Of a DNA stretch of 64,000 nt, positions 5,780 through 37,836 are shown piece by piece. The stretch is from an uncultured bacterium (lineage in GTDB: Bacteria; Bacillota_I; Bacilli_A; RFN20; CAG-826). The stretch's first letter is position 1, and the number at the start of each line of letters is the position of its first letter. A program made the position numbers and the translations under genes. Location: the NCBI GenBank assembly GCA_949285325.1, contig CASDYZ010000007.1:149629-213628 (forward strand), read 5' to 3'. The notes under the pieces are model-generated. The model searched no databases, had not been told where the DNA came from, and saw only the letters and a list, made by a program, of their open reading frames with translations.

Positions 5780-6955
5780 ATGCAGTTTGATTTTGTTTTT
5801 CATAATCCTACCAAAATTTATTTTGGTAAAGATTCATTAAACAATTTAGAGCAAGAATTAAAAAAATATAAAGATAATATATTGCTCGTCTATGGCGGTG
5901 GTTCAATTAAAAGAATCGGTTTGTACGACCAAGTTATCGACATCTTAAATAAATGTCATAAAAATGTTTTTGAATTAAGTGGAGTCATGCCTAACCCAAC
6001 ATATGAAAAGATGATGGAAGGGGCGAGGATGGTAAAAGAACACGACATCGATTTAATTCTTGCAGTTGGAGGAGGCTCTGTCATCGATTTATCTAAAGGT
6101 GTATCTGTAAGCGCCTACTCTAAAGAAGAACCATTTGAAAAATATTGGTTAAAAAAAGAAGCGCTAGACAATAAGACTGTACCAGTCGCCTCTATTTTAA
6201 CGATGGTGGGAACTGGTTCAGAAATGAATGGTGGCTCAGTTATAACTCATGAAGTAAAGAATTTAAAAGTAGGACGCGTCTTCCCATCAAGTGTCTATCC
6301 TAAATTCTCTATTTTAAATCCAGAATATACTTATTCAGTCCCACTTTATCAAATGAAGTCAGGTATATTTGATATCATGTCCCATTTGATGGAACAATAT
6401 TTCAGTGGTCATGACGACAACGTCAGCGACGATTTGATTGAAGCGTTAATTAAATCGACGATTAAAAACACTAAAAACGCCATTGAAAATCCTAAGGATT
6501 ATGAAGCGAGAAGCAATATAATGTGGATCGCTACCCTCGCACTTAATACATTGGTGGGGTGCTCTAAAGAGCAGGACTGGGAAGTGCACGCGATCGAACA
6601 CCAAATCAGCGCGTTTACCGACTGCGCGCATGGAATGGGGCTAGCCGCGATATCTGTCCCATATTATCAACATATATATAAATATGGTTTAGATAAATTT
6701 AAACGCTTCGCGATTAATGTATTTAATGTCGAAGAAACAAATAAAACAGATGAGCAAATTGCTTTAGAAGGTCTCGATGCTTTAAAAGATTTTATCGTCA
6801 GTTCTGGCATGATCTATTCTATTAAAGATTTAGGTGTAAAAGAAGATATGATTAGACCTATCGCTGATACATGCGCCTTGGGTGGTGGATACAAACAAAT
6901 CAACCATGACGAGATATACGATATTTTATTAAAAAGTTACAACAATAATTACTAA
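5780..6955 (+). CDS. iron-containing (group III) alcohol dehydrogenase, BdhA/YqhD-like
   Basis: 391 aa. LVYGGGSIKR and AVGGGSVIDLSKG nucleotide-binding loops. Conserved metal-binding His cluster (HAIEHQIS..CAHGMG). SD GGAGG at 5769-5773. Confidence 0.85.
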   Translation: MQFDFVFHNPTKIYFGKDSLNNLEQELKKYKDNILLVYGGGSIKRIGLYDQVIDILNKCHKNVFELSGVMPNPTYEKMMEGARMVKEHDIDLILAVGGGSVIDLSKGVSVSAYSKEEPFEKYWLKKEALDNKTVPVASILTMVGTGSEMNGGSVITHEVKNLKVGRVFPSSVYPKFSILNPEYTYSVPLYQMKSGIFDIMSHLMEQYFSGHDDNVSDDLIEALIKSTIKNTKNAIENPKDYEARSNIMWIATLALNTLVGCSKEQDWEVHAIEHQISAFTDCAHGMGLAAISVPYYQHIYKYGLDKFKRFAINVFNVEETNKTDEQIALEGLDALKDFIVSSGMIYSIKDLGVKEDMIRPIADTCALGGGYKQINHDEIYDILLKSYNNNY

Positions 6956-7029
6956 TTAACATTTTTGTTATATCATTTTACAAATCTATAACTAAATAAG
7001 CATATTTTATACTTTATTCATAAAATTAT

Positions 7030-7038
7030 TGCTATAAT
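7030..7038 (+). promoter_or_regulatory. candidate extended -10 promoter element (TGcTATAAT) for the ATPase/RloB cassette
   Basis: TGCTATAAT at 7030-7038, about 20 nt upstream of the ATG at 7058, followed by SD GAGG at 7048-7051. The -35 is weak (TTATTC-like). Confidence 0.35.
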
Positions 7039-7057
7039 AAATTTATGAGGTATATGT

Positions 7058-8353
7058 ATGCTTATTTCTTTTAAAATTCAAAACTTTAAATCTTTTTATC
7101 AAGAAAATATATTTTCGATGATAACTACCGCCAAATTCAAAAATTATCCTGAGCATATAAAGCAAATTAAAAATTTAACTATCCTAAAATACAGCGCAAT
7201 TTATGGACCTAATGCGGGAGGGAAGACATCTTTTATAACCGCTTTATCAGTGTTTAAAAATATTGTTTTAAATGGTGTCTCACCACTGATGAATGACTTT
7301 GCCTTTAGAGGTAAAGAAAAAGAAGACACTATTTTTGACATCGTCTTTTCTAAAGATGACAAGATTTATCGATACGCGCTTATTGTCAATTTTAAAGATG
7401 GTGAAATTAAAGAAGAATATTTAGCTAATGTTTTAACTTCTAAAAAGCAAGAAAAAGAAATATACCACGACAAAATAATAAATAACAAAGATCACAGGGC
7501 TAATATATATTTTGAAGATTATAAAATGGTGTGTGCAAAAAACATCCCTTTTTTAAGTTTTATTAATCAAGGTAAAAATTTGACTAGTCCGACGTTAAAT
7601 CCTTTTAAAAAAGCATATGAATTTTTTTATAACGATCTATTGATAATATCTTCATCTAGCTCTATTAATATGATGCATTTAAAAGACGATGAAAGTATCA
7701 ATCAAATATCTTCATTATTAAAAAAGATGCAAACCGGCATTGAAAAGATAAAATTGGTGCCTATAACTTTAGAAGATTTAGCAAAATCTCTACCAACCAA
7801 TTTATTTAATGAGGTATTGACTAGACTTAATTTATCAATAAAAGATGATTCAATTGAAGCCTTATCATTATTAAATGAATTATTTATTGTTAAAAAATAT
7901 AAAAATAAACCCCTTTCTTTTTATAGACTTATATCGGTACATAAAGGCAATGAGACTTCTCAATTTGATTTATTTGAAGAATCGGATGGCACGAAAAGAG
8001 TATTCTTTCTCTCTAGCATATTGTTAAACACTAATCCAGAAGCGGTGTATATAGTCGATGAGATAACAAGGAGTATGCACCCCCTTTTAGCGTACCGCTT
8101 CATAGAAAATGCGATTAAAAATTTAAATAATAATAATTCCCAACTTATATTCACCACTCATCTACCAAATCTCATGAACAAATATTTAAGAGTCGATGAG
8201 ATATGGTTTATCCAAAATGAATATAAAAATAAAGGTAGCAGCATCTACCCTCTTACATCATTTGTTTCAAGGAGCGACACAAATTTAGCCCAAGACTATA
8301 TTTATGGGCGTTTTGGGGCTATCCCACATTTCATTAAAGGGATCGATGATTGA
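7058..8353 (+). CDS. ABC/SMC-type AAA ATPase (AAA_15/AAA_21-like; AbiLi / AriA / OLD-ATPase-like)
   Basis: 431 aa. MLISFKIQNFKSF N-terminus, then Walker A GPNAGGKTS. C-terminal signature-like ESDGTKRVF, Walker B VYIVDEITRSMHP, H-loop FTTHLP. A long insert separates the two head halves. Confidence 0.8.
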   Translation: MLISFKIQNFKSFYQENIFSMITTAKFKNYPEHIKQIKNLTILKYSAIYGPNAGGKTSFITALSVFKNIVLNGVSPLMNDFAFRGKEKEDTIFDIVFSKDDKIYRYALIVNFKDGEIKEEYLANVLTSKKQEKEIYHDKIINNKDHRANIYFEDYKMVCAKNIPFLSFINQGKNLTSPTLNPFKKAYEFFYNDLLIISSSSSINMMHLKDDESINQISSLLKKMQTGIEKIKLVPITLEDLAKSLPTNLFNEVLTRLNLSIKDDSIEALSLLNELFIVKKYKNKPLSFYRLISVHKGNETSQFDLFEESDGTKRVFFLSSILLNTNPEAVYIVDEITRSMHPLLAYRFIENAIKNLNNNNSQLIFTTHLPNLMNKYLRVDEIWFIQNEYKNKGSSIYPLTSFVSRSDTNLAQDYIYGRFGAIPHFIKGIDD

Positions 8354-9041
8354 TATGGCACTTGCCCCATTCCCGTTAACGCGTCCACATAAAAGAGTGC
8401 AAACATATCCAAAGATATATTTTTTGATGGAGGGAGAAAAGACTGAAAAATATTATATACTCGCGATTTTTAAACTCGATGAATTTCATAATATCCCTAA
8501 TGTCGATATTGAATTTTTAGATAAGATAGACGCGGATAAGCATGTGTCGCATGTCTATAAATTAGTCGATAAGGCAGTGGAATTTAAATCTAGACTACCT
8601 CTATTTGACAATAAGAAAGATAGAATATACATATTCTACGACTTGGATGTGTTTAGAGAAGATGCTTATGAGCACATTAAAAAAATGAAACAAATCATGA
8701 GAAAATATCCTTTTATTAAGTTTGGATATACGCATCCTGCTTTTGAATTATATTTACTTATGCATAAAGAAAATGCTTATAAAAAATACATTCTTCCAAA
8801 CAAAGGTAAAATTATTAACAACGAATGGGTGAATAAAAAACGATATATAAATAATTTAACTTCCAATGTTTTAAAAATTAATCCTAAAAAAGAAGATCAT
8901 TACGAATTTTTAGTCCCTAAATATTTAATTGCCCTTGAAAACTGCAAAAACTTAAATCATAAGTTAGAAAAATTTAAAAACGAACTAACTTGCAATCTAG
9001 ATGATATTTTTGAAGAATTATTGAAATTAAATGAGGATTAA
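8346..9041 (+). CDS. RloB-like Toprim-domain protein (AbiLii-like)
   Basis: ATG 8346 overlaps the upstream TGA (ATGATTGA); the ORF-track start 8304 lies inside the upstream gene. Ordered RloB hallmarks: YFLMEGEKTEKYY (Toprim Glu), IFYDLDVF (DxD-like), GYTHPAFELYLLMH. Confidence 0.7.
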   Translation: MIDMALAPFPLTRPHKRVQTYPKIYFLMEGEKTEKYYILAIFKLDEFHNIPNVDIEFLDKIDADKHVSHVYKLVDKAVEFKSRLPLFDNKKDRIYIFYDLDVFREDAYEHIKKMKQIMRKYPFIKFGYTHPAFELYLLMHKENAYKKYILPNKGKIINNEWVNKKRYINNLTSNVLKINPKKEDHYEFLVPKYLIALENCKNLNHKLEKFKNELTCNLDDIFEELLKLNED

Positions 9042-9073
9042 TTTTATTTAAAAATAATTAATATAGTGGTGAT

Positions 9074-9493
9074 TTATGCATTTTTTGAAACAAATTCTTT
9101 AATTTTGTCAAAAGTTTTTTCACTTATAACGTGTTCGATTAAACAACAATCGTGCTCAGCGTTTTCTTCATCTATACCAAGTAGGAGTAAAAATTTTTTT
9201 ATCGTTATATGCTTCTCATAAACTTTATTTGCTTCATGTTTACCTCTTTCTGTCAAATGGATATCGCCGTATGAAACTTTTTCAATTAAGCCGAGTTGAA
9301 GAAGTTCATTCATCGCTTTAGACACCGCTGGCTTAGAGACATTTAAAAAATGGGCAATTTTTACTGATTGGACATTTTCTCCTTTTTGTTCGAGTATTAA
9401 AATTGCCTCGATATAGTCTTCAATCGATTTAGTTAAACGATTATCGCCTTGCCTCATATAATTGATTATATTCTTTTTTATTTTATTGGGCAA
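9074..9493 (-). CDS. DtxR/MntR-family metal-dependent transcriptional repressor
   Basis: 139 aa. SIEDYIEAILILEQ plus the wHTH VKIAHFLNVSKPAVSKAMNEL, then a dimerisation/metal-site region with conserved His and Cys. The ORF-track start is TTG 9493; ATG 9457 (MRQGDN..) is an alternative. Divergent from feoAB. Confidence 0.85.
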   Translation of the reverse strand: MPNKIKKNIINYMRQGDNRLTKSIEDYIEAILILEQKGENVQSVKIAHFLNVSKPAVSKAMNELLQLGLIEKVSYGDIHLTERGKHEANKVYEKHITIKKFLLLLGIDEENAEHDCCLIEHVISEKTFDKIKEFVSKNA

Positions 9494-9533
9494 ATGGCTT
9501 GCATCTAAAAAGTTAACTTTAATTAATTTTTTG

Positions 9534-9562
9534 TTGACTTTGATTTTTTCTCTTTATATTAT
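9534..9562 (+). promoter_or_regulatory. candidate sigma-70-type promoter of feoAB (TTGACT-17 nt-TATTAT)
   Basis: TTGACT 9534-9539, a 17-nt spacer, TATTAT 9557-9562. SD AGGAG 9605-9609 precedes the ATG at 9616. Confidence 0.35.
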
Positions 9563-9570
9563 TTATATGA

Positions 9571-9590
9571 AAATTAACTGCGGTTAACTT
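9571..9590. promoter_or_regulatory. candidate metalloregulator operator (20-bp imperfect palindrome AAATTAACTG|CGGTTAACTT)
   Basis: 8 of 10 positions pair across the centre. It lies just downstream of the putative -10, where a repressor would occlude the transcription start. The core TTAAC-N4-GTTAA has the flavour of DtxR/IdeR iron boxes, but I did not match it to a consensus. Confidence 0.3.
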
Positions 9591-9615
9591 TTTAATTAAA
9601 AAGAAGGAGAGACTT

Positions 9616-9888
9616 ATGCCAAAGGAAAAAAGAAAACATCTCAAGGTTGGTGAACAAGGTCATTTAAGTGATTTAAGACGTGGACAAAGATGTGTCGTTT
9701 TAAATATGCATAATGATAACAAGGCTTTGAGAAGACGTCTTCTCGATATGGGTATTACTAAAGGTGTAATTATTCGCGTGAAAAAAATTGCCCCATTAGG
9801 AGATCCAATCGACATAGAGATTAGAGATTATGAACTATGTATTAGAAAAGAAGATATGAAAGAAATAGATATCGAGGTGATTAAATAA
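9616..9888 (+). CDS. feoA: ferrous iron transport protein A
   Basis: 90 aa, small SH3-like FeoA pattern (G..V..........RRLLDMGI..G..I). Sits immediately upstream of feoB with a 1-nt gap. Confidence 0.85.
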   Translation: MPKEKRKHLKVGEQGHLSDLRRGQRCVVLNMHNDNKALRRRLLDMGITKGVIIRVKKIAPLGDPIDIEIRDYELCIRKEDMKEIDIEVIK

Positions 9889-9889
9889 T

Positions 9890-11938
9890 ATGAAAGTCGC
9901 GTTAGTAGGAAATCAAAACTCTGGTAAGACAACATTATTCAACGCGCTTACGGGGGCTAATCAAAAGGTTGGTAACTGGCCAGGCGTCACGATTGAAAGA
10001 AAAGAAGGCCACATTAAAAATACCGACATCGTCGTCGTCGATTTACCTGGAGTATATTCTCTTTCTCCTTACACATCAGAAGAAGAGATATCGAGAAATT
10101 ATGCGGTGAATGAAAAGCCAGACGTCATCATCGACATCGTCGATGCGACATGTATAGAAAGAAGCTTATATTTAACTACTCAATTGTTAGAGTTAAATAC
10201 CGATGTTATAGTCGCCCTTAATATGAGTGATATTTTAGAAAGAGAAGGTATTAATGTTAATACAGATAAACTTTCTAGTTTACTAGGGGCAAGTGTCGTC
10301 ACGATATCCGCGAAGAAAAAGACTGGTATAGATGAATTAGTCTCTTTATTAAGAAACGGCACATACATTAAAAATAATCACAATAAAATATACACTGACG
10401 ATTTAGAAAAAATCATCAGTGAAGTAAAAACTAATTATGAATTAGATTCAAGATTTGATGCGGTTAAAGTTATAGAACAAGATCCGATGTATGAACATTA
10501 TGCACTAGAAGAATCTACAAAAGAAAAAATTAGTGTTATTGAAAAAGAACATGACATGGATGTTGAACAATTAATTGCATCTCAACGTTATGACTATATT
10601 GCTAATATTAAAAAACAAAGTGTAACTATCGCACTTAATAAGAAAAATGCGATAACTGATAAATTAGATAAAATATTCTTAAACAAGTGGGCCGCTATAC
10701 CGATTTTTATAGTTATTATGGCGCTTGTATATATTTTATCAGTCGGGCTTGTCGGTGGACTTACTGTCAGTCTTATCGACTCACTATTTAACGGGGCTGA
10801 AGAGATTGAATTTAATTTCTTTGGAATCGTTTGGACTGCTCCATTTAATATAATGGGTTTAGGTCCATGGTTGCATGAATCATTATTGAGTTTAAACGCT
10901 AGCGAATGGGCTGCTAGCTTGGTTAGTGATGGTATGATAGCGGGCGTAGGAGCGGTTTTAAACTTTGTTCCTCAAATCATGATTTTGTTCCTCTGTTTAT
11001 CGATACTAGAAACAACTGGATACATGTCACGTATTTCATTCTTTCTCGATCGTATTTTCCACAAATTTGGATTAAGTGGTAAATCGCTCATCCCGTTTAT
11101 CGTCGGTAGTGGTTGCTCAGTTCCTGGAGTTATGGCAAGTAGAACTATCGAAGATGAAAATGAAAAGAAATTAACCATTACATTAACTCCTTTCATTCCT
11201 TGTTCAGCTAAATTACCAATCATTTCATTATTTGCTGGATATTTCTTCTCACCAAGTATTTCTTGGCTTGTCACCTTATCTTTATATGTCTTAGCAATCG
11301 TCGTCATATTGATAAGTGGTGTCATCATTAAAAAATTGTTCTTTAAAGGCTCACATTCAGCTTTTGTAGCAGAACTCCCTGCTTATAAAGCACCAAATGC
11401 TGGATATGTAGCTAGATATGTATTTGATAAAACATTTGCCTTTATTAAAAGAGCAGGCACGATTATTCTACTTTGTTCAGTAATTGTTTGGTTCTTAGCC
11501 TCATTCACTTGGAACTTTAATTATATCGATGGTGAAATTTATACGATTGAAGAATCATTATTAGCCAATATTGGTAGAAGTATCGCTTGGATTTTCTATC
11601 CGATGCTTGGCGATTTATCTTGGGCAGCAAGTGTCTCAGCAATTCAAGGATTGGTGGCAAAAGAACAAGTCGTATCATCGATGGAAACAATTGCTGCTGT
11701 CGCGGAAGGTGGAGATGTATTTGCGACATCGCTATTCTCATTCTTTAACGGTTGGAGTGCATATGCATTTATGGTATTCAATTTATTCTCTGCACCATGC
11801 TTCGGGGCGATTGGTGCGATGAGAAGAGAATTTGCATCTAACAAGCAACTTTGGAGTGCAATTGCTTTCCAAACAGGCTTAGCTTGGGTTTTAGCGTCCA
11901 TCATTGGAATTATTGGTATGGGGGTAACTAGCATATGA
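9890..11938 (+). CDS. feoB: ferrous iron transporter B
   Basis: 682 aa. N-terminal G-domain (VALVGNQNSGKTTLFNALTG, DLPG), followed by a polytopic membrane domain with the gate motifs. Confidence 0.97.
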   Translation: MKVALVGNQNSGKTTLFNALTGANQKVGNWPGVTIERKEGHIKNTDIVVVDLPGVYSLSPYTSEEEISRNYAVNEKPDVIIDIVDATCIERSLYLTTQLLELNTDVIVALNMSDILEREGINVNTDKLSSLLGASVVTISAKKKTGIDELVSLLRNGTYIKNNHNKIYTDDLEKIISEVKTNYELDSRFDAVKVIEQDPMYEHYALEESTKEKISVIEKEHDMDVEQLIASQRYDYIANIKKQSVTIALNKKNAITDKLDKIFLNKWAAIPIFIVIMALVYILSVGLVGGLTVSLIDSLFNGAEEIEFNFFGIVWTAPFNIMGLGPWLHESLLSLNASEWAASLVSDGMIAGVGAVLNFVPQIMILFLCLSILETTGYMSRISFFLDRIFHKFGLSGKSLIPFIVGSGCSVPGVMASRTIEDENEKKLTITLTPFIPCSAKLPIISLFAGYFFSPSISWLVTLSLYVLAIVVILISGVIIKKLFFKGSHSAFVAELPAYKAPNAGYVARYVFDKTFAFIKRAGTIILLCSVIVWFLASFTWNFNYIDGEIYTIEESLLANIGRSIAWIFYPMLGDLSWAASVSAIQGLVAKEQVVSSMETIAAVAEGGDVFATSLFSFFNGWSAYAFMVFNLFSAPCFGAIGAMRREFASNKQLWSAIAFQTGLAWVLASIIGIIGMGVTSI

Positions 11939-12129
11939 GTGGGACAGATATAGTCATATTGATTGCAGTCATTCTAATTTTAGGAGTAATCATATATTTC
12001 TCCTTCATTAGGCCTAAGATGCAAGGTCGTTCAATCGCGTGTGCGAACTGTGCATCAGCATCTAAGGTTAAAAGAATCAAAAAGAAAATAAAAAAAGAAT
12101 TAGAAAAAGATAAAAAGAACAATCAATAA
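11935..12129 (+). CDS. FeoB-associated Cys-rich small membrane protein
   Basis: 64 aa. ATGA overlap with the feoB stop. One N-terminal TM helix, then ACANCASASK and a Lys-rich tail, matching the small partner commonly found after Gram-positive feoB. Confidence 0.65.
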   Translation: MSGTDIVILIAVILILGVIIYFSFIRPKMQGRSIACANCASASKVKRIKKKIKKELEKDKKNNQ

Positions 12130-12142
12130 TAAAATTCTTTAT

Positions 12143-12175
12143 AAGGTGATGTAATTTAAACATCACCTTTTTTAT
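12143..12175 (+). terminator. rho-independent terminator of the feo operon
   Basis: AAGGTGATG (12143-12151), a 9-nt loop, CATCACCTT (12161-12169), then a T-run. Confidence 0.75.
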
Positions 12176-12295
12176 AAAATATTTATGGTAGAAATATTTA
12201 GACTAGTAATTCTAAAAATGTACAAATATGATATAATAAAAATAGCTGTACACGATTATTTTGTTTGTCTATTTGCAAGCTGGAAGGATGGGATA

Positions 12296-12787
12296 ATGTC
12301 TACTACTAAAAGATTTTGTCTAACGCTATCTGTGTTGGTTTTGAGCATATCTTTGACGTCGTGTGCCTCATCTTTTAAACCAATTTTACCCGGGGAGTAT
12401 TTTCCGTTTAATGTTCTTAAAGATGAAGAAGAGAAAACTTTTAACGAATTTACCATAAAACTTGAAGTTATTAGTAGGGAAGAGTTTGAAAGCCAAGAAT
12501 ATAATGTTTTTGAAGATCCGTGGTCAAAAAGAAACTATAAACGCGAAGAAATTTTTTTGTCTTTTGATTTAAGAATTTTAGATGAAAAGACACAGGAGTT
12601 AATTCCAATTAAATGTTATGATTTCTTTGTCGAAGAGACACATTGGAAAGAATTTCAAATTAAAGCCGAAAATAACATATTCGATTTAACTTTTATTCAT
12701 TACACACCATTGGAAAATATTATTAGTTTTACAGTTCAACAAAATGACAAAACAATAATCACTGAATATCAATTAGAAAGAAGATAA
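12296..12787 (+). CDS. hypothetical lipoprotein
   Basis: Preferred start is ATG 12296, preceded by GGAAGGA (the ORF-track start 12185 adds 37 unlikely residues). Signal peptide with lipobox: MSTTKRFCLTLSVLVLSISLTSC. No recognised domain. Confidence 0.55.
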   Translation: MSTTKRFCLTLSVLVLSISLTSCASSFKPILPGEYFPFNVLKDEEEKTFNEFTIKLEVISREEFESQEYNVFEDPWSKRNYKREEIFLSFDLRILDEKTQELIPIKCYDFFVEETHWKEFQIKAENNIFDLTFIHYTPLENIISFTVQQNDKTIITEYQLERR

Positions 12788-23936: not shown

Positions 23937-26432
23937 TTAATCGATTATTTGTATATTTATTATTTCATCTTGTATTTTTGAAACATCAAAAGAATCATTA
24001 ATAGTTTCATCATTAACTATTATTTTTCTTTTACCTTGTTTCATATTTTGATAGTTAATTTTTAATAATTTATTTTTGACTCGAACAGTTAGATGAGCGT
24101 CGTCACACGGAAAATAATTTGATGGTTTAATCTTAACTATTGAAGTTAAATCAACTTTTAAACCAAACAAATCAAAAACGAGAGTTTTAATTAAAGTATT
24201 AGAGCTACCAGTATACCAATCGTTCATAGATTCTCCATCGACACCTATTTCTGGATTATAGATGTATGAATTTGGCATGACAAAAGGAGAAGTAGAGACG
24301 AATTTATGTGTTAAGGGAATAATTTTATAAATTTGTTCAAAAGCTTTTTCTCCTTCATCTAGCATAAATAATGATTTAATGGCGAACACCACACTGTGAA
24401 TGTATGTCGCCGCATTTTCGGCGGTGCCTTTTGGTAGATTAATAATTCTCCCCACCTTAAACGCATCCCTATCAAAATATTCATCAAATGTTTTATAACC
24501 ATATTTGCTATCTAAACATTCATACGCTTTTAATATTGTGTTTTTAATATCTTTATTATCTTCATATAGCCCAGAGATGCAGTAAAAGGCATTTGATGTC
24601 AAAGAGTGTCTATTTTTATTGTCAACATCTTTAAAACTACCGACAAAGAAACTCTTATTTTCACCCCATCCATGAACGATTCTTTTTTCATCTTCCTTTG
24701 ATATGATGCAGTGTTTATTAATGCTTTTCTTTAGTCTATTCGCACAATCTAAATAATAATTTATTTTATTTTCATCGTTACTATAATATTTAGTAATATT
24801 TGCCATCTCTATTAAGTTTTTATAGAGGTGGAAACTCGCCATCGACGATACTCCATTACCAAAAGATTCATTTTGGTTAGAGGAACGACCTAAACCATCA
24901 ATCGCGTCATTCCAATCACCATAAAGAGTTTTTAAACACCCAGTATCTTGATCAATATTTTTTATTAGGTAATTAATAATTTTTTCTAAATGTTTATACA
25001 CACTGTCGGTGATATTTAATATTTTTCCGCTCTTTAAACCGATAAGTTCACAGTATTTACACTCCTCATCTAAAATGCTCTTATCATTGCTATAGGATAG
25101 ATAGGTGTATATTGTCGATATAATCCATTGCCCTTGGTCGATAAATTCTCTATTGTCCATGAGCGGATTTTCTTCTCCACTTGGTAAAGAGAATTGTCGA
25201 GGGCTTTGTCCACTTGGATCAATAAAATTTAAACATTTTAATATTATCTTTCTCGCACTTTTTAAATCCCATAGCAAAGACGCTTCAACCATTTGGAATA
25301 CATCTCTTATCCCTAGAAGCATAAGTGATGAGTTTTTTGCATTCGCCCCATAATCTACTTGATATATGACATTTTTTATAAATTGGTTTAATAAAGAATT
25401 GTTTAATTTGTTGTCATTTAATGGTCCAAATTCAATACAAAAATCTTTGATGTTTGATGAAGTGTCTTTTAGTTTAATAAATTCAACATCGTTATCTTCA
25501 TATTTAAAAGATTTATTTTGATAATATTCATTATCTTTTTCATTAAATGAAATATTAATTTTGTAATCAACTTGTAATGATTCATTATTTTTTAATTTGC
25601 TTTTAACAATGTCGGAATAGGCAGAAGTTTCAGAAAATAATGTCGTCTTTTTTTCTTCTTTTATCTCTCCCATCTTAAGTGCTTTTGAATGATATAAAGC
25701 GATGTGTTTACCCCCGCTAAAACAAGCTTTAGAAGAAGTGGAGGTAACTATAATATCTTTTCTATTTACTGCTCTTTTAATATTTGCGTAATTAGTTAGA
25801 TGAATATTTCTAGAAACATCTTCAACTCCTAAAAAAGTACAACCGTCATCATTTAGTGTACATTTTTTAAACCATTTACTCTCTTCACTATCACAGGCAT
25901 TATGCTCCATGATTGGATTCATGTAAGAAGATAAATATATATCTATATCTTTATTAGTATTGTTAAACGCAAATGCTGATATCAATATATCTTTATTAGA
26001 ATTAATACCTAGTTTTAAAGCAAAAATAACATTGTTAAGTTCTTTTATGTAATATACATATTTTTTACCAAACACGCAGTAGGAATAATCATCTAAATCA
26101 TTTAAAACACCAGTAATTGAATAAGGTGTATATCCATCATTATTTTTTATCCCCCCAAAAAACATAATCCTAGGTTCTCTTCCTTCAAGAGTAGGAGGAA
26201 AAAGGTAAAATGATGATTCATTTATCGATATATATCCAGAAGCGTGAGCCCATAAAGTCAATCCATCGCAGCTATATGGGTAGCGGGAATCTCCATCTTT
26301 TCTAGGTAGAGCAAGGATAAAATTGTCATCGAGAAAATAACAAGAACTTGGTAATGTCTTTTCTTTTGGGTTAGTTTTTAAACAACTATGAATTTGCTCT
26401 AAAAGATTATATATTTCCGCTTTAGGATTCAT
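23937..26432 (-). CDS. GH94-like glycoside phosphorylase (laminaribiose/cellobiose/chitobiose phosphorylase family)
   Basis: About 831 aa from ATG 26432 (843 aa from GTG 26468, which overlaps the upstream gene by 34 nt). The family-typical catalytic segment LYGDWNDAIDGLG lies in an (alpha/alpha)6-type C-terminal half. No signal peptide. Substrate cannot be assigned from sequence. Confidence 0.65.
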   Translation of the reverse strand: MNPKAEIYNLLEQIHSCLKTNPKEKTLPSSCYFLDDNFILALPRKDGDSRYPYSCDGLTLWAHASGYISINESSFYLFPPTLEGREPRIMFFGGIKNNDGYTPYSITGVLNDLDDYSYCVFGKKYVYYIKELNNVIFALKLGINSNKDILISAFAFNNTNKDIDIYLSSYMNPIMEHNACDSEESKWFKKCTLNDDGCTFLGVEDVSRNIHLTNYANIKRAVNRKDIIVTSTSSKACFSGGKHIALYHSKALKMGEIKEEKKTTLFSETSAYSDIVKSKLKNNESLQVDYKINISFNEKDNEYYQNKSFKYEDNDVEFIKLKDTSSNIKDFCIEFGPLNDNKLNNSLLNQFIKNVIYQVDYGANAKNSSLMLLGIRDVFQMVEASLLWDLKSARKIILKCLNFIDPSGQSPRQFSLPSGEENPLMDNREFIDQGQWIISTIYTYLSYSNDKSILDEECKYCELIGLKSGKILNITDSVYKHLEKIINYLIKNIDQDTGCLKTLYGDWNDAIDGLGRSSNQNESFGNGVSSMASFHLYKNLIEMANITKYYSNDENKINYYLDCANRLKKSINKHCIISKEDEKRIVHGWGENKSFFVGSFKDVDNKNRHSLTSNAFYCISGLYEDNKDIKNTILKAYECLDSKYGYKTFDEYFDRDAFKVGRIINLPKGTAENAATYIHSVVFAIKSLFMLDEGEKAFEQIYKIIPLTHKFVSTSPFVMPNSYIYNPEIGVDGESMNDWYTGSSNTLIKTLVFDLFGLKVDLTSIVKIKPSNYFPCDDAHLTVRVKNKLLKINYQNMKQGKRKIIVNDETINDSFDVSKIQDEIINIQIID

Positions 26433-26434
26433 TT

Positions 26435-27889
26435 TTAAATGCCTGCTTGTCGTTTCCAATCTTCCCACTGTCTTTGTGTTTCGTTTTTAATTGTGTCAAA
26501 AGCACGATCAACACTAGATGTACCAGATAATATACCATTGAATGGTCTCATTGCTGAAGTACCCCACACATCAACTATATTATTTAAATAAAGTAAACTT
26601 GATGAGAAATTGGTGAAAGTAGTGGAAGTTGAATTTTTATAATCCACTAAAGAATCGACAAATGAATTAGGAGCCTCATAATTTTGAGTATCCCAAGAGT
26701 ACGCCATTAAGCCATTCGCCGTGGTGGTGAAGTTTTCACATCCCCAATTAGACACTAACAATTTAATAAATGATTTTGCTAAATCAGCTTTTGTTGATGT
26801 AGCAGGTATAGCGATATATTGGTCTTCACCAACAATATAAGAAATATTTTCATCGACAGCATTAGGCGCAGTAGGTGTCTTCATGATTTTTAAATCAAAA
26901 GTTTCAGGTAAAACGCCATCTTCCATATATCTAATTATTTCGTTATAGCACCATTCACCATTAAACATCATCGCACTATATCCGTTTAAAAAATCTTGTT
27001 GAGCTTGGTGATTTGTTTTAGATAAAGAACCTTCGACATAATTAGTTGAGTCAGAGAAAATATTATTCCATAGCTCTACAGCTTCTTTTAAATATGAATA
27101 AGCGCTGTCAGCGACTGTATAGTCAAAAGCGGTGTAATTTTCATATTTTAAAAATTCACTTATTTTTTCTTTTCCAGCAAGTTGTCCCCACCAAGTAAGA
27201 ACAGCGTAATCAAAATAGTCAGTGTTTTGTCCGGTATATACAAAAGGTCTAACCGTCGCACTTAAATCACCTTCAACTGGGATTCTATCTTCTTTGATTT
27301 TACTAATTAAAGCAGTTAATTGTTCATAAGTTTCTGGCACCCCAGTAGTGTTAGTTGGGTATTGTTCTTTAAGCCAAACATCCCACCCAGCGTCAGTAAA
27401 CATCGCTGCATTATAATAAATACCACCGACACCACTAGTCCAAGGTAATCGATAAGTATGTGTCTCACCATCCAGATTAGTAAAATATATAGAATCTTGA
27501 TATTCTTCATTAACTTTATCTTTAATTTTGACACCATCAACTTCTTCTTCAATTAAATCGTCAAGTGGATGTAATGCTCCGCTTGCGGCGTAGGTTCTCC
27601 AATCAGTGCCGACGCTTATATATAAGTCATCAGTGTTGTGGCTTGACGCCATATTTCTCGATATTAAACTTTTCGCGTCTTCACTGGCTACTAAATTAAC
27701 TTTGTAATCAGGATTTTCTTCTTCCCACTTACTAACTGCGTTTTTAATCCAGACATCGCCATAACCTAAATTTAAACAAACAATATTTAAAGTAGTTGGG
27801 TCGTTTTCTTGTCCGCCTCCACACCCACTCAAAAGTGAAAGAGATAAAAATAAAGTGCCACCTAAGAGGCAAAATAAAGATTTTTTCAT
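26435..27889 (-). CDS. ABC sugar transporter substrate-binding lipoprotein (family 1 SBP)
   Basis: 484 aa. Lipobox LSLLSGC. Trp/Tyr-rich SBP fold pattern. SD AGGAG 8 nt upstream of the ATG. Confidence 0.85.
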   Translation of the reverse strand: MKKSLFCLLGGTLFLSLSLLSGCGGGQENDPTTLNIVCLNLGYGDVWIKNAVSKWEEENPDYKVNLVASEDAKSLISRNMASSHNTDDLYISVGTDWRTYAASGALHPLDDLIEEEVDGVKIKDKVNEEYQDSIYFTNLDGETHTYRLPWTSGVGGIYYNAAMFTDAGWDVWLKEQYPTNTTGVPETYEQLTALISKIKEDRIPVEGDLSATVRPFVYTGQNTDYFDYAVLTWWGQLAGKEKISEFLKYENYTAFDYTVADSAYSYLKEAVELWNNIFSDSTNYVEGSLSKTNHQAQQDFLNGYSAMMFNGEWCYNEIIRYMEDGVLPETFDLKIMKTPTAPNAVDENISYIVGEDQYIAIPATSTKADLAKSFIKLLVSNWGCENFTTTANGLMAYSWDTQNYEAPNSFVDSLVDYKNSTSTTFTNFSSSLLYLNNIVDVWGTSAMRPFNGILSGTSSVDRAFDTIKNETQRQWEDWKRQAGI

Positions 27890-27928
27890 GAAAATTACTC
27901 CTTTTTTAAGTTTGTAAAATAAATCATT

Positions 27929-27950
27929 AATTTCATTATAATATAATTAA
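27929..27950 (-). promoter_or_regulatory. shared 22-nt promoter/operator element, copy 2 (AATTTCATTATAATATAATTAA)
   Basis: 20 of 22 identical to 17457-17478. It lies 39 nt upstream of the minus-strand SBP ATG. On the minus strand it reads TTGTTT-16 nt-TATAAT. Confidence 0.4.
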
Positions 27951-28063
27951 TCGTGAAAACAACGGAAAAATGTGAAATTGATAAACAAATTTTTTCATAA
28001 AACAAAAAAATGCTTTATTTTTTAAAAAATCATTTATAATTATTAATGTGAAGGAACAAATTT

Positions 28064-29494
28064 ATGAATAATTTTAAATTTTCTAACATTTTATTTATTT
28101 TTGCTTGTTGTCTACCTCTTTTTGGATGTGGTAATGATTCATCTAGTGAAGAAGATACATTAGACACTATTGAAGTTGGTGAACAAATAAGAATTTTAAA
28201 TAATGTAAAATTTGATGAAGACAATTTATTTTTTGATGATTTTACTAATGGTGTCGATTACGACAATTGGATAATCGGTAGTGGTGCGTGGGGCAACGGT
28301 AATGGTGGCGTCGTACCCGACAATGTTTTTTATACCGATGATGGTGTATTACTCCTAAGAGGTAATGGTCTACATTACACCAAAGGAGAAGTAAAAGGAT
28401 TAGGCATGCTTAAAGACGGTAGAAATACTGGGGCTGCCCTCATATCAAAATTTTTAACAGGTCCAGGTCGATATGAAATAAAGATGAAACCATTAGGTCG
28501 GCTTGGCGCGTGTACTGCTTTTTGGACATATAACAATATCACAGATCCTAACGGCGGAGAAAATTTAAACCACGAAATTGATATTGAAATGCCGGGCGGG
28601 AAAAACGATGGCATCATATCTTTTAAAAATGTTTTAAATACTAATTATATTACTGAATCATTTTCAACTTCTAAGGATGTTAATTATGAGTCAATTACAA
28701 GTGACGCAATTTATTTTAATGATGGCAATTTCCATACATTTGGATTCGATTGGTATACAAATCCTGGCTTAATTGTTTATTTTTGTGATGGAATTGTAAC
28801 CGCGGTAAGCGATGTATTTATCCCTGATTTATTATCTAGACTTTGGCTTGGTGTATGGTTTCCAAATAACGCTGGATTTGTTGGCGAATCTTTGTTTGAA
28901 ACTGATTATATGCAAGTCGATTGGGTAAAATATTTACCATTTGATGAATCGCAACCATTTACTGAGCAAGATGCATCCATATCGGTAAATGCCGCACTAG
29001 AAAGAGAATATCCTTCTTCCCCTGTTTCTTATCCAGAAATCAATTTAATTTCTAATGGTGATTTTGAATACGTCAGTTCTCATCCTCAAGATGGATACGG
29101 GTGGAATTATTCGAGATTAAATACTGAAGATAAAGAAGTTAGTGAAGTTTGCTACGCCAGTCACGATGGATATCAAGATTCCTATGGGGCGAGTATTAAA
29201 GAAGGCGGATACTTAACGATGAATATCGATTCTTGTTATGAAGGATATGAATATACTTTATCTTTTAAAGCAAAATCTAGTGGAAGTGATTCAAACGCTG
29301 TTATAAATTTCGTCGGAGCCTCTTCTTCAAGAGCGATCGAATCAAAGACTATTAATATTACTTCAAGTGAATGGGAAACTTATACACTAGACGTAAAAGC
29401 ACCTATCGATTCTTATTCTATTCGTCTTGAATTTTATAACAAAGAAAGTATCAGCACACTTCAAGTTGATAATGTCGAATTGGTGAGAAAATAA
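28064..29494 (+). CDS. GH16 beta-glucanase lipoprotein with C-terminal CBM4_9-like domain
   Basis: 476 aa. Lipobox LPLFGC. Catalytic NHEIDIEMPG. NGDFEY..LQVDNVELV carbohydrate-binding-module pattern. The catalytic domain is paralogous to that of 18832. Confidence 0.85.
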   Translation: MNNFKFSNILFIFACCLPLFGCGNDSSSEEDTLDTIEVGEQIRILNNVKFDEDNLFFDDFTNGVDYDNWIIGSGAWGNGNGGVVPDNVFYTDDGVLLLRGNGLHYTKGEVKGLGMLKDGRNTGAALISKFLTGPGRYEIKMKPLGRLGACTAFWTYNNITDPNGGENLNHEIDIEMPGGKNDGIISFKNVLNTNYITESFSTSKDVNYESITSDAIYFNDGNFHTFGFDWYTNPGLIVYFCDGIVTAVSDVFIPDLLSRLWLGVWFPNNAGFVGESLFETDYMQVDWVKYLPFDESQPFTEQDASISVNAALEREYPSSPVSYPEINLISNGDFEYVSSHPQDGYGWNYSRLNTEDKEVSEVCYASHDGYQDSYGASIKEGGYLTMNIDSCYEGYEYTLSFKAKSSGSDSNAVINFVGASSSRAIESKTINITSSEWETYTLDVKAPIDSYSIRLEFYNKESISTLQVDNVELVRK

Positions 29495-29495
29495 A

Positions 29496-30515
29496 ATGGA
29501 AGAAAATGTATTGCAACCAACTGAAGAAATAATAGATAAAAATTTAACTCCTAGTGAGAGAGCTAAATCTTTTAAACCTGAGCAAAAAAAGCATTTGAGT
29601 AGAAGAACTAGAGACTATATTTTTGTCATCATCATGCTTTTATATCCAGTCTTGCAGTTTGTTATAACTTGGGCTTTCGTCAATATTAATTCATTGATAC
29701 ACGCTTTTCAGTATGGAAGAATTGATGGGACTTATGAATGGGCTGGATTTGACCAATTTATTAAAATATTTGATGACTTTTTTAATTCGTCATTAAATAC
29801 GACTGGTGTCAGTTGGCTAAATAATACATCTGTAATACTACTCAATTCTTTAGGTTTTGCGTTTATTACTATTTTTATATCTTTACCATTATCTTTATTA
29901 TTTTCTTATTTTTTATCAAAGAAAATGCCATTAGCCAATGTCTTTAGAGCGATATTTTTCTTACCTAATATCATCCCAGTAGTCGCACTTACATTCGCAT
30001 TTGCTATGGGGTTTGATTCAACATATGGTTATTTATATGATTTTATGATTTGGTTAGGATTTAACGACAATTTCTTCTCGGTTTGGCCTACTTCTCAAAT
30101 AATGGTGTATATTTACTGTATTTGGGCTGGATTAGGATATAACATCATTCTTCTTTCTGGGGCGATTGGAAGAATCCCTAAAGAATTATTTGAATCAGCT
30201 AAACTAGATCACGCTGGATATTTTAAAGAATTTATCCACGTTGTCATTCCTTGCATTTGGCCGACGATAGTCACTTTAGTCATATTAGGCATGACAAATG
30301 TTTTAACTCTTTATTTACAGCCTCTTCTTTTAACTAATGGAGAAGGAAATACTTATACTATCTCATTAGATATATTCCTAGCGACCGCTTCTTATTCTCC
30401 TGCTCAGTATTGCTCCGCCGCGGCAAAAGGTTTACTTTGCTCAGCAATTTGGGCACCAATAATTATGCTAGTAAGAAATTTAATGTCAAAAAAATATCAA
30501 GGAGTGGATTATTGA
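29496..30515 (+). CDS. ABC sugar transporter permease (MalF/UgpA-like)
   Basis: 339 aa, 6 TM segments. EAA loop ESAKLDHAGYFKEFIHVVIP. Confidence 0.9.
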   Translation: MEENVLQPTEEIIDKNLTPSERAKSFKPEQKKHLSRRTRDYIFVIIMLLYPVLQFVITWAFVNINSLIHAFQYGRIDGTYEWAGFDQFIKIFDDFFNSSLNTTGVSWLNNTSVILLNSLGFAFITIFISLPLSLLFSYFLSKKMPLANVFRAIFFLPNIIPVVALTFAFAMGFDSTYGYLYDFMIWLGFNDNFFSVWPTSQIMVYIYCIWAGLGYNIILLSGAIGRIPKELFESAKLDHAGYFKEFIHVVIPCIWPTIVTLVILGMTNVLTLYLQPLLLTNGEGNTYTISLDIFLATASYSPAQYCSAAAKGLLCSAIWAPIIMLVRNLMSKKYQGVDY

Positions 30516-30516
30516 T

Positions 30517-31419
30517 ATGGAAGATTTAAAAGTAGCGTTTGAAGGCTCTCCTAAAAAGAAACAAAAAAGAATAGATGTTGGTTACCATTTTGGTAAGTGG
30601 TTTGTTTTTGGTCTATTTGTCATATATGCGATCACTCTTTTATTCCCATTTCTTTGGATGCTCATAAATTCATTTAAAACTGGTGAAGAATTTATGACTG
30701 GTAATATTTTTGGTTTTCCTAAAGTCTTTTACGGTATGAACTTTATCGAAGTACTCACTTACGAAGTTGAAGGGCAAACAGTTTGGTCGATGATTATTAT
30801 GTCGATTATCACTACAGTATTAGGCACTGTCATAAATGTATTTTTATCAGCTTGTGCGGCTTACTGCCTTGCTAAATATAAGTTTATTGGTAGAAATATA
30901 ATTTATGGTTTAGCTATCTTCACCATGGTGGTGCCAATTGTCGGTACCCTTCCTTCTCAAGTCGTCATGCTTGAAACATTTGGTATGGATGAATCATTGT
31001 TAGGAGTTTTATTCCTCTATTCTGGATGTTTTGGATTTAATTTCATCCTTCTTTATTCAGCTTTTTCAAGCATATCGACAAGTTATATGGAGGCCGCCCA
31101 AATCGACTGCGCTGGTCGATTTAAAACATTTTTTACCATCATGCTTCCAATGGCAAAAGGACCTATTATCGCTTGTTCAATTTTACAAGCAATTACATAT
31201 TGGAACGATTATTCTACCCCGAGATTATTTATGCCAAGCGACATGACAACCTTGGCGGTCGGATTACAAAAAATACAAGAAAGTTTAGGAAATACAAGTG
31301 GAGATTATCCGATGGTATTCGCCTCGATGCTCATCGCCATTTTCCCAATATTGATTTTATATTTATGCTTCCAAAAACGCATTATTGAAAGCACGAATGC
31401 TGGAGGATTAAAAGGATGA
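30517..31419 (+). CDS. ABC sugar transporter permease (MalG/UgpE-like)
   Basis: 300 aa. EAA loop EAAQIDCAGRFKTFFTIMLP. 1-nt gap from the upstream permease. Confidence 0.9.
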   Translation: MEDLKVAFEGSPKKKQKRIDVGYHFGKWFVFGLFVIYAITLLFPFLWMLINSFKTGEEFMTGNIFGFPKVFYGMNFIEVLTYEVEGQTVWSMIIMSIITTVLGTVINVFLSACAAYCLAKYKFIGRNIIYGLAIFTMVVPIVGTLPSQVVMLETFGMDESLLGVLFLYSGCFGFNFILLYSAFSSISTSYMEAAQIDCAGRFKTFFTIMLPMAKGPIIACSILQAITYWNDYSTPRLFMPSDMTTLAVGLQKIQESLGNTSGDYPMVFASMLIAIFPILILYLCFQKRIIESTNAGGLKG

Positions 31420-34394: not shown

Positions 34395-34405
34395 GAGCTG
34401 ATTTT

Positions 34406-35563
34406 ATGGACAAAAAATTAGGTAAAGATCAAACATATTCAAGATTATTAAATAATCAGCTCGTCATTTCTAAGCTACAACAAAATGATTACTCTGCGAC
34501 TGATTTAGCAAAAAAATTATCCCTTTCTAATGCGACGATGTCCTCAATTATTAAAGAACTTTTAAGTGAAGGCCTTATTAAAGTGTCTTCTACTTCTTCA
34601 ATAAAAGGATGCGGAAGAAAGCAAGTATTTTACACAATTAATGAAAAATATGGACTTATACTCGCGGTTAATATATCTAATTTTCAAGCTAAAATCTCAG
34701 TATCTAACGTTAAAGAAGAAATACTCGCGACTGAGATAATCGACGTCGATAAATACAATATTGAAACTATTTATTTAATACTGTTAAAAGCGTCACAAAT
34801 ATTGATGGACGAACAATTTAGAAACACCCCATTAAAAGATATTATTATTTCTTTACCTGGTCGAGTCAATCGCTCCACAGGTGAACTTGTGTTATCTAAA
34901 CAATTTGATCCAGAATTATTTAAAGAACAAAATTTTATATCTAATTTATTTGCTAAACAATTTCCTTCCGTGCCTATCCATCTCGCAAACGATGTCAATG
35001 TATCAGCACGTGGGGAGATGAAAAAAGGCGCCTTGGTCGATGAGAAAAACGCCCTATATATTTCTCTTGACACTGGTATTGGTGGGTCATTAATCGTCGA
35101 CTCTATGTTGTTTGAAGGTGATCAAGGCTACGCTGGTGAGTTCGGTTTAATGAAAATATATTACGATGGCCGTTATGAATGTCTAGATGAATTTTCTTCC
35201 CTTAGAGTGCTCATTGAAAAGGCTGAAAAAATAAGTGGACAAAATTTAAATATGTCGAGGACAAAATTAATTGAATTATATAAAAATAATGAGCAAATTA
35301 AACAAGAAGTGCTTAAAAGTGCCTCGGTTTTAGGGAAATGTATCGCAAATTTAGTTGAAATGTTTGATATTTCTACTATCGTAATCGCAGGTAGGGCAAT
35401 CGAATTTGGTGATGAATATTTAGAAGCAGTTAAAAAAGAAACATCTCACCTGATTTACGCCCCATCAATTAAATTTTCTACTCTTGGAAGAAATAGCAAA
35501 ATAATCGGTGCGACTGTCATGGGAGTCGACTATGTATTAAGTCGCGACGCGAAGAAAAATTAG
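34406..35563 (+). CDS. ROK-family transcriptional regulator (NagC/XylR type)
   Basis: 385 aa. N-terminal wHTH (YSATDLAKKLSLSNATMSSIIKELLSEG). ROK core with DTGIGGSLIV and GYAGEFG. Confidence 0.85.
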   Translation: MDKKLGKDQTYSRLLNNQLVISKLQQNDYSATDLAKKLSLSNATMSSIIKELLSEGLIKVSSTSSIKGCGRKQVFYTINEKYGLILAVNISNFQAKISVSNVKEEILATEIIDVDKYNIETIYLILLKASQILMDEQFRNTPLKDIIISLPGRVNRSTGELVLSKQFDPELFKEQNFISNLFAKQFPSVPIHLANDVNVSARGEMKKGALVDEKNALYISLDTGIGGSLIVDSMLFEGDQGYAGEFGLMKIYYDGRYECLDEFSSLRVLIEKAEKISGQNLNMSRTKLIELYKNNEQIKQEVLKSASVLGKCIANLVEMFDISTIVIAGRAIEFGDEYLEAVKKETSHLIYAPSIKFSTLGRNSKIIGATVMGVDYVLSRDAKKN

Positions 35564-35579
35564 ATGAGAGGTAATATAG

Positions 35580-36746: not shown

Positions 36747-36764
36747 TTTAAAGAAAGGACAGAT

Positions 36765-37820: not shown

Positions 37821-37836
37821 TAGGAGGTTAGAATGT

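Follow-up and report, generated by a model that had tools for sequence, protein, structure and literature searches.

An intact two-gene module of the AbiL family, in which the gene for an ABC-type ATPase (abiLi) is followed by the gene for an RloB/Toprim-like nuclease (abiLii), occupies positions 7030-9041 of the 64-kb stretch of DNA analyzed here (the window), which derives from a 235-kb metagenomic scaffold of an uncultured low-GC bacterium. The module is real but ordinary. AbiL, composed of AbiLi and AbiLii, is said to have been described by Deng et al. in 1999 as an abortive-infection system of Lactococcus lactis. A first-pass annotation had read the pair as an AbiL-type or split-OLD defense cassette, and profile searches supported that reading: the AbiLi and AbiLii models of PADLOC were each the top match of the respective protein, and the Pfam families AAA_21 and RloB were matched significantly. 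Membership of the pair in the AbiL family is very probable. The best explanation of the locus overall is probably that of a chromosomal AbiL-family module, transcribed as one mRNA from its own extended -10 promoter and encoding an abortive-infection nuclease under the control of the ATPase.

The ATPase and its RloB partner

The abiLi product matched the PADLOC AbiLi model (PDLC02335) at 6.3e-68 with 227 bits, the first of 38 matches, and homologues from Lactococcus, Fusobacterium, and Flavobacterium scored similarly against the same profile. The Pfam scan called for in the first-pass annotation was significant for AAA_21 (2.2e-26, residues 47-374 on positions 3-304 of the 304-position profile) and fell marginally under the cutoff for AAA_15 (32.0 bits, cutoff 32.1 bits), and PHROG 5836 was matched at 1.6e-54. 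The start codon at 7058 is backed by a near-invariant M1 and an MLIxFxxxNFxSF consensus in the homologues. The Walker A, signature-like, Walker B, and H-loop motifs that had been recognized by eye were all present and fell in invariant or near-invariant columns when judged over 48-64 homologues (Table 1), the signature-like stretch reading EESDGTKR. The head motifs are split by an insert of mixed alpha/beta character at approximately residues 195-300.

An AlphaFold (AF2) model of AbiLi had a predicted local distance difference test score (pLDDT) of 88.7. A Foldseek search with this model returned 152 PDB matches at E<=1e-3, with Rad50 heads first (2.4e-12), and among the matches were also SMC heads, PtuA (8eea, 8sux, and 9n6c, E ~1e-9), and the class-1 OLD nuclease 6p74 (6.4e-09). 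As modeled, AbiLi has a Rad50/SMC-like head fold. Searches of PDB sequences, by single sequence or by profile, gave no match for either protein.

The abiLii product matched Pfam RloB (PF13707) significantly, as the first-pass annotation had anticipated (5.7e-15, 56 bits, cutoff 31.5), and PADLOC AbiLii (PDLC02337) at 3.3e-14; the Pfam and PADLOC scans found nothing beyond these two. A word-indexed homologue search with AbiLii retrieved only the query itself and the protein of a sister species. Relatives were then taken from an exhaustive HMMER search of 1.84 billion representatives, which yielded 170 representative clusters at E<=1e-3, and 80 full-length relatives were aligned. All 80 matched both the RloB and the AbiLii profile. 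The three segments previously picked out as RloB/Toprim hallmarks, YFLMEGEKTEKYY, IFYDLDVF, and GYTHPAFELYLLMH, were all found in the abiLii product, with E26, G27, D96, and P128 invariant in the 80 relatives and T30, E31, D89, D98, and E131 conserved in at least 90%. The acidic pair that had been called DxD-like is indeed there, but is a true DxD (D96-L-D98). In a lactococcal prophage AbiLii-type protein, the segment aligned with PAFELYLLMH is SIEVWLLLH.

The AF2 model of AbiLii (pLDDT 92.8) shows a beta-alpha-beta-alpha-beta-alpha-beta core, with E26 placed after beta1 and D96xD98 ending beta3. In this model the protein conforms to the Toprim signature as stated in PMC12065111, namely a Glu at the end of beta1 and a DxD at the end of beta3. 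RloB is classed there as a Toprim protein with conserved E and DxD (PMC12065111), and a relation of RloB to Toprim has also been stated from HHpred (PMC10440598). The Toprim assignment of the RloB partner rests on these motifs and this literature. The catalytic motifs are complete in both proteins, and catalytic competence is predicted to be retained.

Table 1. Features of the abiLi-abiLii cassette, in window coordinates
Feature	Coordinates	Strand	Remarks
Extended -10, TGCTATAAT (TGnTATAAT)	7030..7038	+	Read directly; putative promoter function
Shine-Dalgarno GAGG, 7 nt 5' of abiLi ATG 7058	7047..7050	+	Read directly; GAGGTG kept in sister species
abiLi-like gene, ABC/SMC-type ATPase, 431 aa	7058..8353	+	ATG start, TGA stop; AAA_21, AbiLi, PHROG 5836
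Walker A / P-loop GPNAGGKTS, aa 50-58	7205..7231	+	G50, N52, G55, K56 invariant in 64 homologues
ABC signature-like ESDGTKR, aa 308-314	7979..7999	+	S309, G311 invariant; E308, T312, R314 at least 90%
Walker B VYIVDE, aa 330-335	8045..8062	+	D334, E335 invariant
H-loop FTTHLP, aa 365-370	8150..8167	+	H368 invariant; T366, T367 at least 90%
Junction TGA-T-ATG, abiLi stop then conserved abiLii start	8351..8357	+	1-nt gap
abiLii-like gene, RloB-family (Toprim-like) predicted nuclease, 228 aa	8355..9041	+	RloB, AbiLii profiles; longest ORF from 8304, alternative ATG 8346
EGEKTE, aa 26-31, predicted catalytic Glu right after beta1	8430..8447	+	E26, G27 invariant; model strand 20-25
DxD, D96-L-D98, end of beta3	8640..8648	+	D96 invariant, D98 at least 90%; model strand 90-96
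PAFELYLLMH helix after beta4, aa 128-137	8736..8765	+	P128 invariant; E131, L134 at least 90%

Promoter and gene junction

The pair had been credited with an extended -10 and a Shine-Dalgarno sequence of its own, and both elements are present and conserved in the sister species (GCA_949292105.1), where TGTTATAAT lies at an equal distance from the abiLi start while the remaining spacer has diverged. The extended -10 at 7030-7038 was absent from the listing of a consensus scan because no -35 match exists.

The abiLii gene had been placed at the ATG at 8346, inside the end of the ATPase gene (ATGATTGA). This ATG is in frame and the two genes do abut, but it is not the conserved start, because in the sister species the equivalent upstream ATG lies in another frame and the protein starts with MALAPFPLTRP. 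The conserved start is the ATG at 8355, 1 nt past the ATPase TGA; the corresponding junction of the sister species reads TAA-TT-ATG, and its protein has the same MALAPF N-terminus. The abiLii start is preceded, 12 nt upstream, by a weak AAAGGGA. The poor Shine-Dalgarno sequence, together with the 1-nt gap between stop and start, suggests that translation of abiLii depends on ribosomes finishing abiLi by termination-reinitiation coupling, and with such coupling the toxin would stay sub-stoichiometric.

Under Mycoplasma-type code 4, translation would continue past the TGA of the ATPase gene; this code was ruled out because the 51 long open reading frames (ORFs) of the window contain no in-frame TGA and seven genes end in TGA; code 11 fits, with 157 TGG codons. 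The arrangement of the genes agrees with the PADLOC definition of AbiL, the two being adjacent on the same strand with the ATPase first (7058-8353, then 8355-9041). The same adjacent, ATPase-first arrangement was seen in five of the six homologous loci inspected, the exception being a Peptostreptococcaceae locus.

Conservation at the locus and distribution of homologues

The sister species, the one present in the genome collection, has this cassette too, at the corresponding site. Amino acid identity to the sister is 75% for AbiLi and 74% for AbiLii; for most flanking genes it is 59-83%, an ABC permease being the outlier at 36%. Synonymous sites are saturated, with a proportion of synonymous differences (pS) of 0.80-0.91, and since dN/dS is for this reason not properly computable, pS and the corresponding nonsynonymous proportion (pN) are reported in its place. 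The pN of the cassette is 0.17-0.19, like that of the flanking genes. Because the cassette is syntenic in the sister, has diverged to the same degree as its flanks, and combines saturated pS with this low pN, it predates the split of the two species and has been kept vertically under purifying selection. It is not a recent arrival and looks like an old acquisition. All four contigs with an identical adh gene carry it.

Comparison of the adh-dtxR junction in related genomes, as had been proposed, showed that more distant relatives whose synteny is partly conserved lack the cassette. Genome GCA_965325165.1, whose FeoB is 67% identical, keeps the order LemA-pepC-adh...feoAB without AbiL, and its adh|feoA gap holds instead a gene (6626-7558, - strand) for a 309-aa protein with HATPase_c_4 and a TrmB-type helix-turn-helix, which replaces both AbiL and dtxR. 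Two further relatives have amidohydrolase-dtxR-feoAB without the cassette. The adh|feoA junction behaves as a variable slot. In GCA_965325165.1, feoB is followed by Fic and AAA_14/DUF4143 genes.

The locus of the sister species contains an extra 119-aa ORF (12037-12396, + strand) between abiLii and dtxR, with its own Shine-Dalgarno sequence and a hairpin terminator (AGCAGGTTTGACCTGCT followed by a T-run); it has no Pfam or PHROG match. This ORF was ruled out as a third component in the window, where neither a homologue nor a remnant was found, no family was matched, and the gap between abiLii and dtxR is 32 bp.

The cassette had also been judged by eye to be more AT-rich than its neighbors. 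This holds relative to adh (35.5% GC) and feoB (36.1% GC), which are among the most GC-rich genes of the window, but not relative to all 51 window genes: the GC contents of abiLi (28.9%) and abiLii (27.9%) compare with 32.0 +/- 2.7% over those genes (z -1.1 and -1.5), and the GC3 of the cassette is at the window mean (z +0.2). No integrase, no convincing direct or inverted repeats, and no restriction-modification or other defense genes were found near the cassette. The sole pair of boundary repeats (7006-7033 and 9034-9061) is 71% complementary and AT-rich, and was taken as chance.

Beyond the sister species, the next-best relatives of the ATPase share only approximately 33% identity with it and are from Bacteroidota, Clostridia, Cloacimonadota, a betaproteobacterium, and an archaeon. 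Plasmid matches to the ATPase amounted to 146 records. Small Klebsiella plasmids of 3.5-5 kb carry the pair and little else, and one that was examined annotates only the pair. The best plasmid match of the window ATPase belongs to a Fusobacterium pair (31.8% identity). On the Fusobacterium varium plasmid pFV113-g1-1 (4001-7038), this closest of the plasmid AbiLi/RloB pairs is directly followed by a SMODS-domain gene (a CBASS-type nucleotidyltransferase), with transposases flanking, and forms with it a small defense island on a mobilizable plasmid. A Lactococcus prophage pair annotated as "abortive phage resistance protein" aligned with AbiLi (7e-27) and AbiLii (7e-5), with the EG-TE, DxD, and FE..LL.H motifs in register. 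AbiL-family cassettes wedged between housekeeping genes are not unusual, as in Flavobacterium psychrophilum, where the order is metG-AbiLi-RloB-HAD. Taken together, the homologues are distributed patchily over phyla, plasmids, and prophages, almost always as a pair, as is expected of a defense or toxin-antitoxin module.

On the chromosome of Peptostreptococcaceae bacterium AGR-M142 (6001-10978), an AbiLi homologue adjoins a prophage lysis module and an insertion sequence element. There, the ATPase gene is followed by a 93-aa ORF for which no RloB match was called, and a second AAA_21 ATPase paired with a 191-aa protein lies 1.7 kb downstream. This locus may be a decayed or variant system.

Proposed mechanism and alternatives

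AbiL has been grouped with systems in which an ABC ATPase is combined with a Toprim protein (PMC11464382). In one of these, PARIS, the ATPase AriA sequesters the Toprim nuclease AriB, a phage protein triggers release, and AriB then cuts tRNA-Lys (PMC11464382). As summarized in PMC13064643, the L. lactis system aborts phage c2 (c2-type) after transcription. The AbiLii protein of Fusobacterium nucleatum was toxic alone in Escherichia coli (PMC3985639), and an RloB-like toxin of Clostridium algidicarnis (node D44) was neutralized by its AAA ATPase (PMC10440598).

Taking PARIS, P2 Old, and the validated AAA:RloB toxin-antitoxin pair as analogues, we favor, with moderate confidence, a sequestration-release mechanism for AbiLi and AbiLii. 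AbiLi, as an ABC/SMC-type ATPase, would oligomerize and hold the RloB/Toprim-like nuclease AbiLii inactive, and would double as the sensor of infection, for which the mixed alpha/beta insert at approximately residues 195-300 is the candidate. Release or activation of AbiLii would come from a trigger of phage origin, coupled to ATP binding or hydrolysis, and AbiLii could then cut nucleic acid by means of its Glu and DxD metal site. The likeliest target would be host or phage RNA such as tRNA, with DNA possible, and the cut would halt translation or replication such that the infection is aborted.

Several observations weigh against this account. F. nucleatum AbiLi supplied in trans failed to neutralize AbiLii (PMC3985639), and an antitoxin function of the ATPase is therefore either not general or not straightforward. 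The trigger of AbiL and the target of the RloB nuclease are questions of the family as a whole and not specific to this locus. The core-like composition of the cassette and its fixation in every contig seen of the two species are less typical of fast-turnover defense genes, and the cassette lies outside any defense island. With regard to the Toprim assignment, a Foldseek search of the PDB with the confident AbiLii model retrieved neither a Toprim nor an OLD structure (the best match, lumazine synthase, had E 0.02), the AbiLii profile search of PDB sequences was empty, and hhalign of AbiLii with P2 Old placed EGEKTE on VEGKTE at a non-significant score. On the P2 Old side, this last comparison used a single sequence, the C-terminal domain of P2 Old being without diverse relatives in the plasmid and phage collections. 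The viral structure library BFVD returned only another "RloB-like protein" and no Toprim or OLD entry, and among the 80 AbiLii relatives, OLD-like_TOPRIM (PF20469) and GajA were each matched by one (4e-4 and 6e-4, respectively).

The same pair could be read as a toxin-antitoxin (addiction) module that is selfish and on balance plays no part against phage, in which the RloB nuclease is the toxin, the ATPase is the antitoxin, and loss of the cassette kills the cell. RloB-type proteins are toxic and one is neutralized by its AAA partner (PMC3985639, PMC10440598), the cassette has been kept at one site through a speciation deep enough to saturate synonymous divergence and is in all contigs seen, and its position outside a defense island also fits. 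However, the prototype AbiL has an abortive-infection phenotype (summarized in PMC13064643), members of the family occur on prophages and beside CBASS-like genes, and a 431-aa ATPase with fully conserved catalytic motifs would be a costly antitoxin unless it also senses. Toxin-antitoxin and abortive-infection roles are, moreover, not mutually exclusive. We consider a purely selfish module unlikely.

A domesticated housekeeping ATPase-nuclease, serving the lineage as a Rad50/SbcC- or RecF-like repair factor, would account for the match of the fold to Rad50 and SMC heads, for the core-like composition, and for the synteny and purifying selection in the two species. The cassette is, however, missing from the next relatives with conserved flanks, and the nearest homologues outside the two species, at approximately 33% identity, are spread among phyla, plasmids, and prophages. 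The best-scoring models are those of defense systems, and no Mre11/SbcD-type partner is present. A repair role is thereby very unlikely.

The first-pass annotation had also offered PARIS (AriA/AriB) as a label, under which the ATPase would sense anti-restriction proteins such as Ocr and release a DUF4435 Toprim tRNase that cuts tRNA-Lys. PARIS, too, is a two-gene system of an ABC ATPase and a small nuclease, and PADLOC "AriA" models matched at 4.9e-27 and 7.3e-09. The top "AriA" match is, however, generic, because it shares its length and coordinates with Pfam AAA_21 (47-374 versus 3-304/304), and the ATPase scores 227 bits with AbiLi versus 94 bits with AriA. No AriB or DUF4435 match was found at E<=1 for the partner, and none for its 80 relatives; AbiLii and AriB are described as having no significant sequence similarity and as superposing poorly in structure (PMC13064643). 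The label was rejected, and we regard PARIS itself as highly improbable here.

The remaining alternative, an RloA/RloB-type accessory pair of a type I restriction-modification locus, draws on the naming of the Pfam family after RloB of type I restriction-modification operons (Pfam description; PMC10440598), but no hsdR, hsdM, hsdS, or methylase gene adjoins the pair, whose neighbors encode an Fe-dependent alcohol dehydrogenase (Fe-ADH), an ABC transporter, CTP synthase, DtxR, FeoAB, and a ZIP transporter, and elsewhere the window is of metabolic or housekeeping content, making this reading scarcely credible. No hsd gene or DNA methylase was found among the annotated ORFs of the window, several ORFs of which were not scanned. 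Two other systems were considered and ruled out. For MADS (MAD3/MAD4), the NF047739 MAD3 model scored 30.9 bits against a cutoff of 420 and no methylase is nearby; for a fused OLD protein (P2 Old, GajA), the two ORFs of the cassette lie in different frames and are separated by a stop, and the GajA model matched the ATPase weakly (2.1e-07) and over the C-lobe only.

An AbiL-family module encoding an ATPase-controlled abortive-infection nuclease is thus the reading we retain. Standard defense annotation with PADLOC or DefenseFinder would already call the locus AbiL, and the contribution is modest: a further AbiL-type module that is confidently assigned and comes from an uncultured low-GC lineage without characterized defense systems. 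That such a module has been kept in one chromosomal slot under purifying selection through speciation is mildly notable. It is conceivable, if quite doubtful, that the cassette represents a divergent AbiL clade that has become a fixed vertical resident at adh|dtxR in a small gut-type Bacilli lineage, whether held by addiction, co-opted for the host, or maintained as a long-lived defense against a persistent phage family, and that its RloB target, for example a specific tRNA, might differ from that of AriB. If this were true, the compact AbiL pair could serve as a tractable model.

The surrounding window

The genes flanking the cassette are those for Fe-ADH, the ABC transporter, CTP synthase (pyrG), dtxR, feoAB, and the ZIP transporter. 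A GH94/GH16 sugar locus, glnA, glmS, typA, and dnaX are found elsewhere in the window, in keeping with an ordinary chromosomal stretch. For the flanking genes, the nearest relatives with a name are from metagenome-assembled genomes of uncultured Bacilli, Acholeplasmatales, Anaeroplasmataceae, and Coprobacillus. No tRNA, tmRNA, or Rfam family was detected in the 64 kb.

In the divergent dtxR-feoA intergenic region, a 25-nt inverted repeat (9506-9530 and 9570-9594) that is 84% complementary and has GTTAAC cores is a candidate DtxR-family operator for feoAB. A 64-aa ORF (11935-12129, + strand) overlaps the feoB stop (ATGA) and encodes a Cys/Lys-rich protein (CANCASASK...). It is kept after feoB in relatives, with identities of 62% (GCA_949292105.1), 47% (GCA_965325165.1), and 38% (a third relative), and may be a FeoB-associated small protein. 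Farther along, a carbohydrate cluster (23937-38667) encodes a GH94 phosphorylase, a GH16 glucanase, a sugar ABC transporter, a 992-aa surface-type protein, a ROK regulator, and SIS and PIG-L enzymes, as would suit a glycan degrader of the gut. Positions 54878-57991 encode a YfhO-family membrane protein.

Comparison with known systems

Our comparison with lactococcal AbiL was made with the family models and the prophage homologue in place of the sequence of the pND861 prototype. The window pair resembles AbiL of L. lactis in gene order, in the abutting of the genes, in the matches to the AbiLi and AbiLii/RloB profiles, and in its alignment with the lactococcal prophage pair. It differs in that identity to that prophage pair is only approximately 25% for AbiLi and 23% for AbiLii, in that it is chromosomal and lies between housekeeping genes whereas the L. 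lactis system is on a plasmid, and in its host, an uncultured low-GC bacterium.

Two further pairs are alike by domain content. The AAA(D29):RloB-like(D44) pair of C. algidicarnis, from NetFlax (PMC10440598), has the same two domains, the comparison being one of domain content. The pair of F. nucleatum that includes AbiLii (PMC3985639) likewise shares both domains, and its RloB protein is toxic, but its ATPase is non-neutralizing in trans.

PARIS shares with the window pair a split arrangement of an ABC ATPase and a small Toprim-class nuclease and, likely, the logic of a sensor that holds its effector; the ATPases belong to the same AAA_15/21 radiation (PMC11464382). The effector differs, being DUF4435 in PARIS and RloB in the window, as does the insert of the ATPase (PMC13064643). 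The OLD proteins (P2 Old of class 1 and GajA of class 2) have in common with the pair the fold of the ABC ATPase head (6p74, 6.4e-09) and the Toprim-type E...DxD, and P2 Old carries AAA_15/AAA_21 and OLD-like_TOPRIM. ATPase and nuclease are fused in P2 Old and GajA, whereas they are separate genes here, and the link between RloB and the OLD Toprim domain is only weakly detectable. Finally, Septu (PtuA/PtuB) and the retron-associated PtuAB share the ATPase fold (8eea, 8sux, and 9n6c, E ~1e-9) and the two-gene combination of an ATPase with a nuclease, but the PtuB effector is an HNH nuclease, whereas that of the window is RloB.

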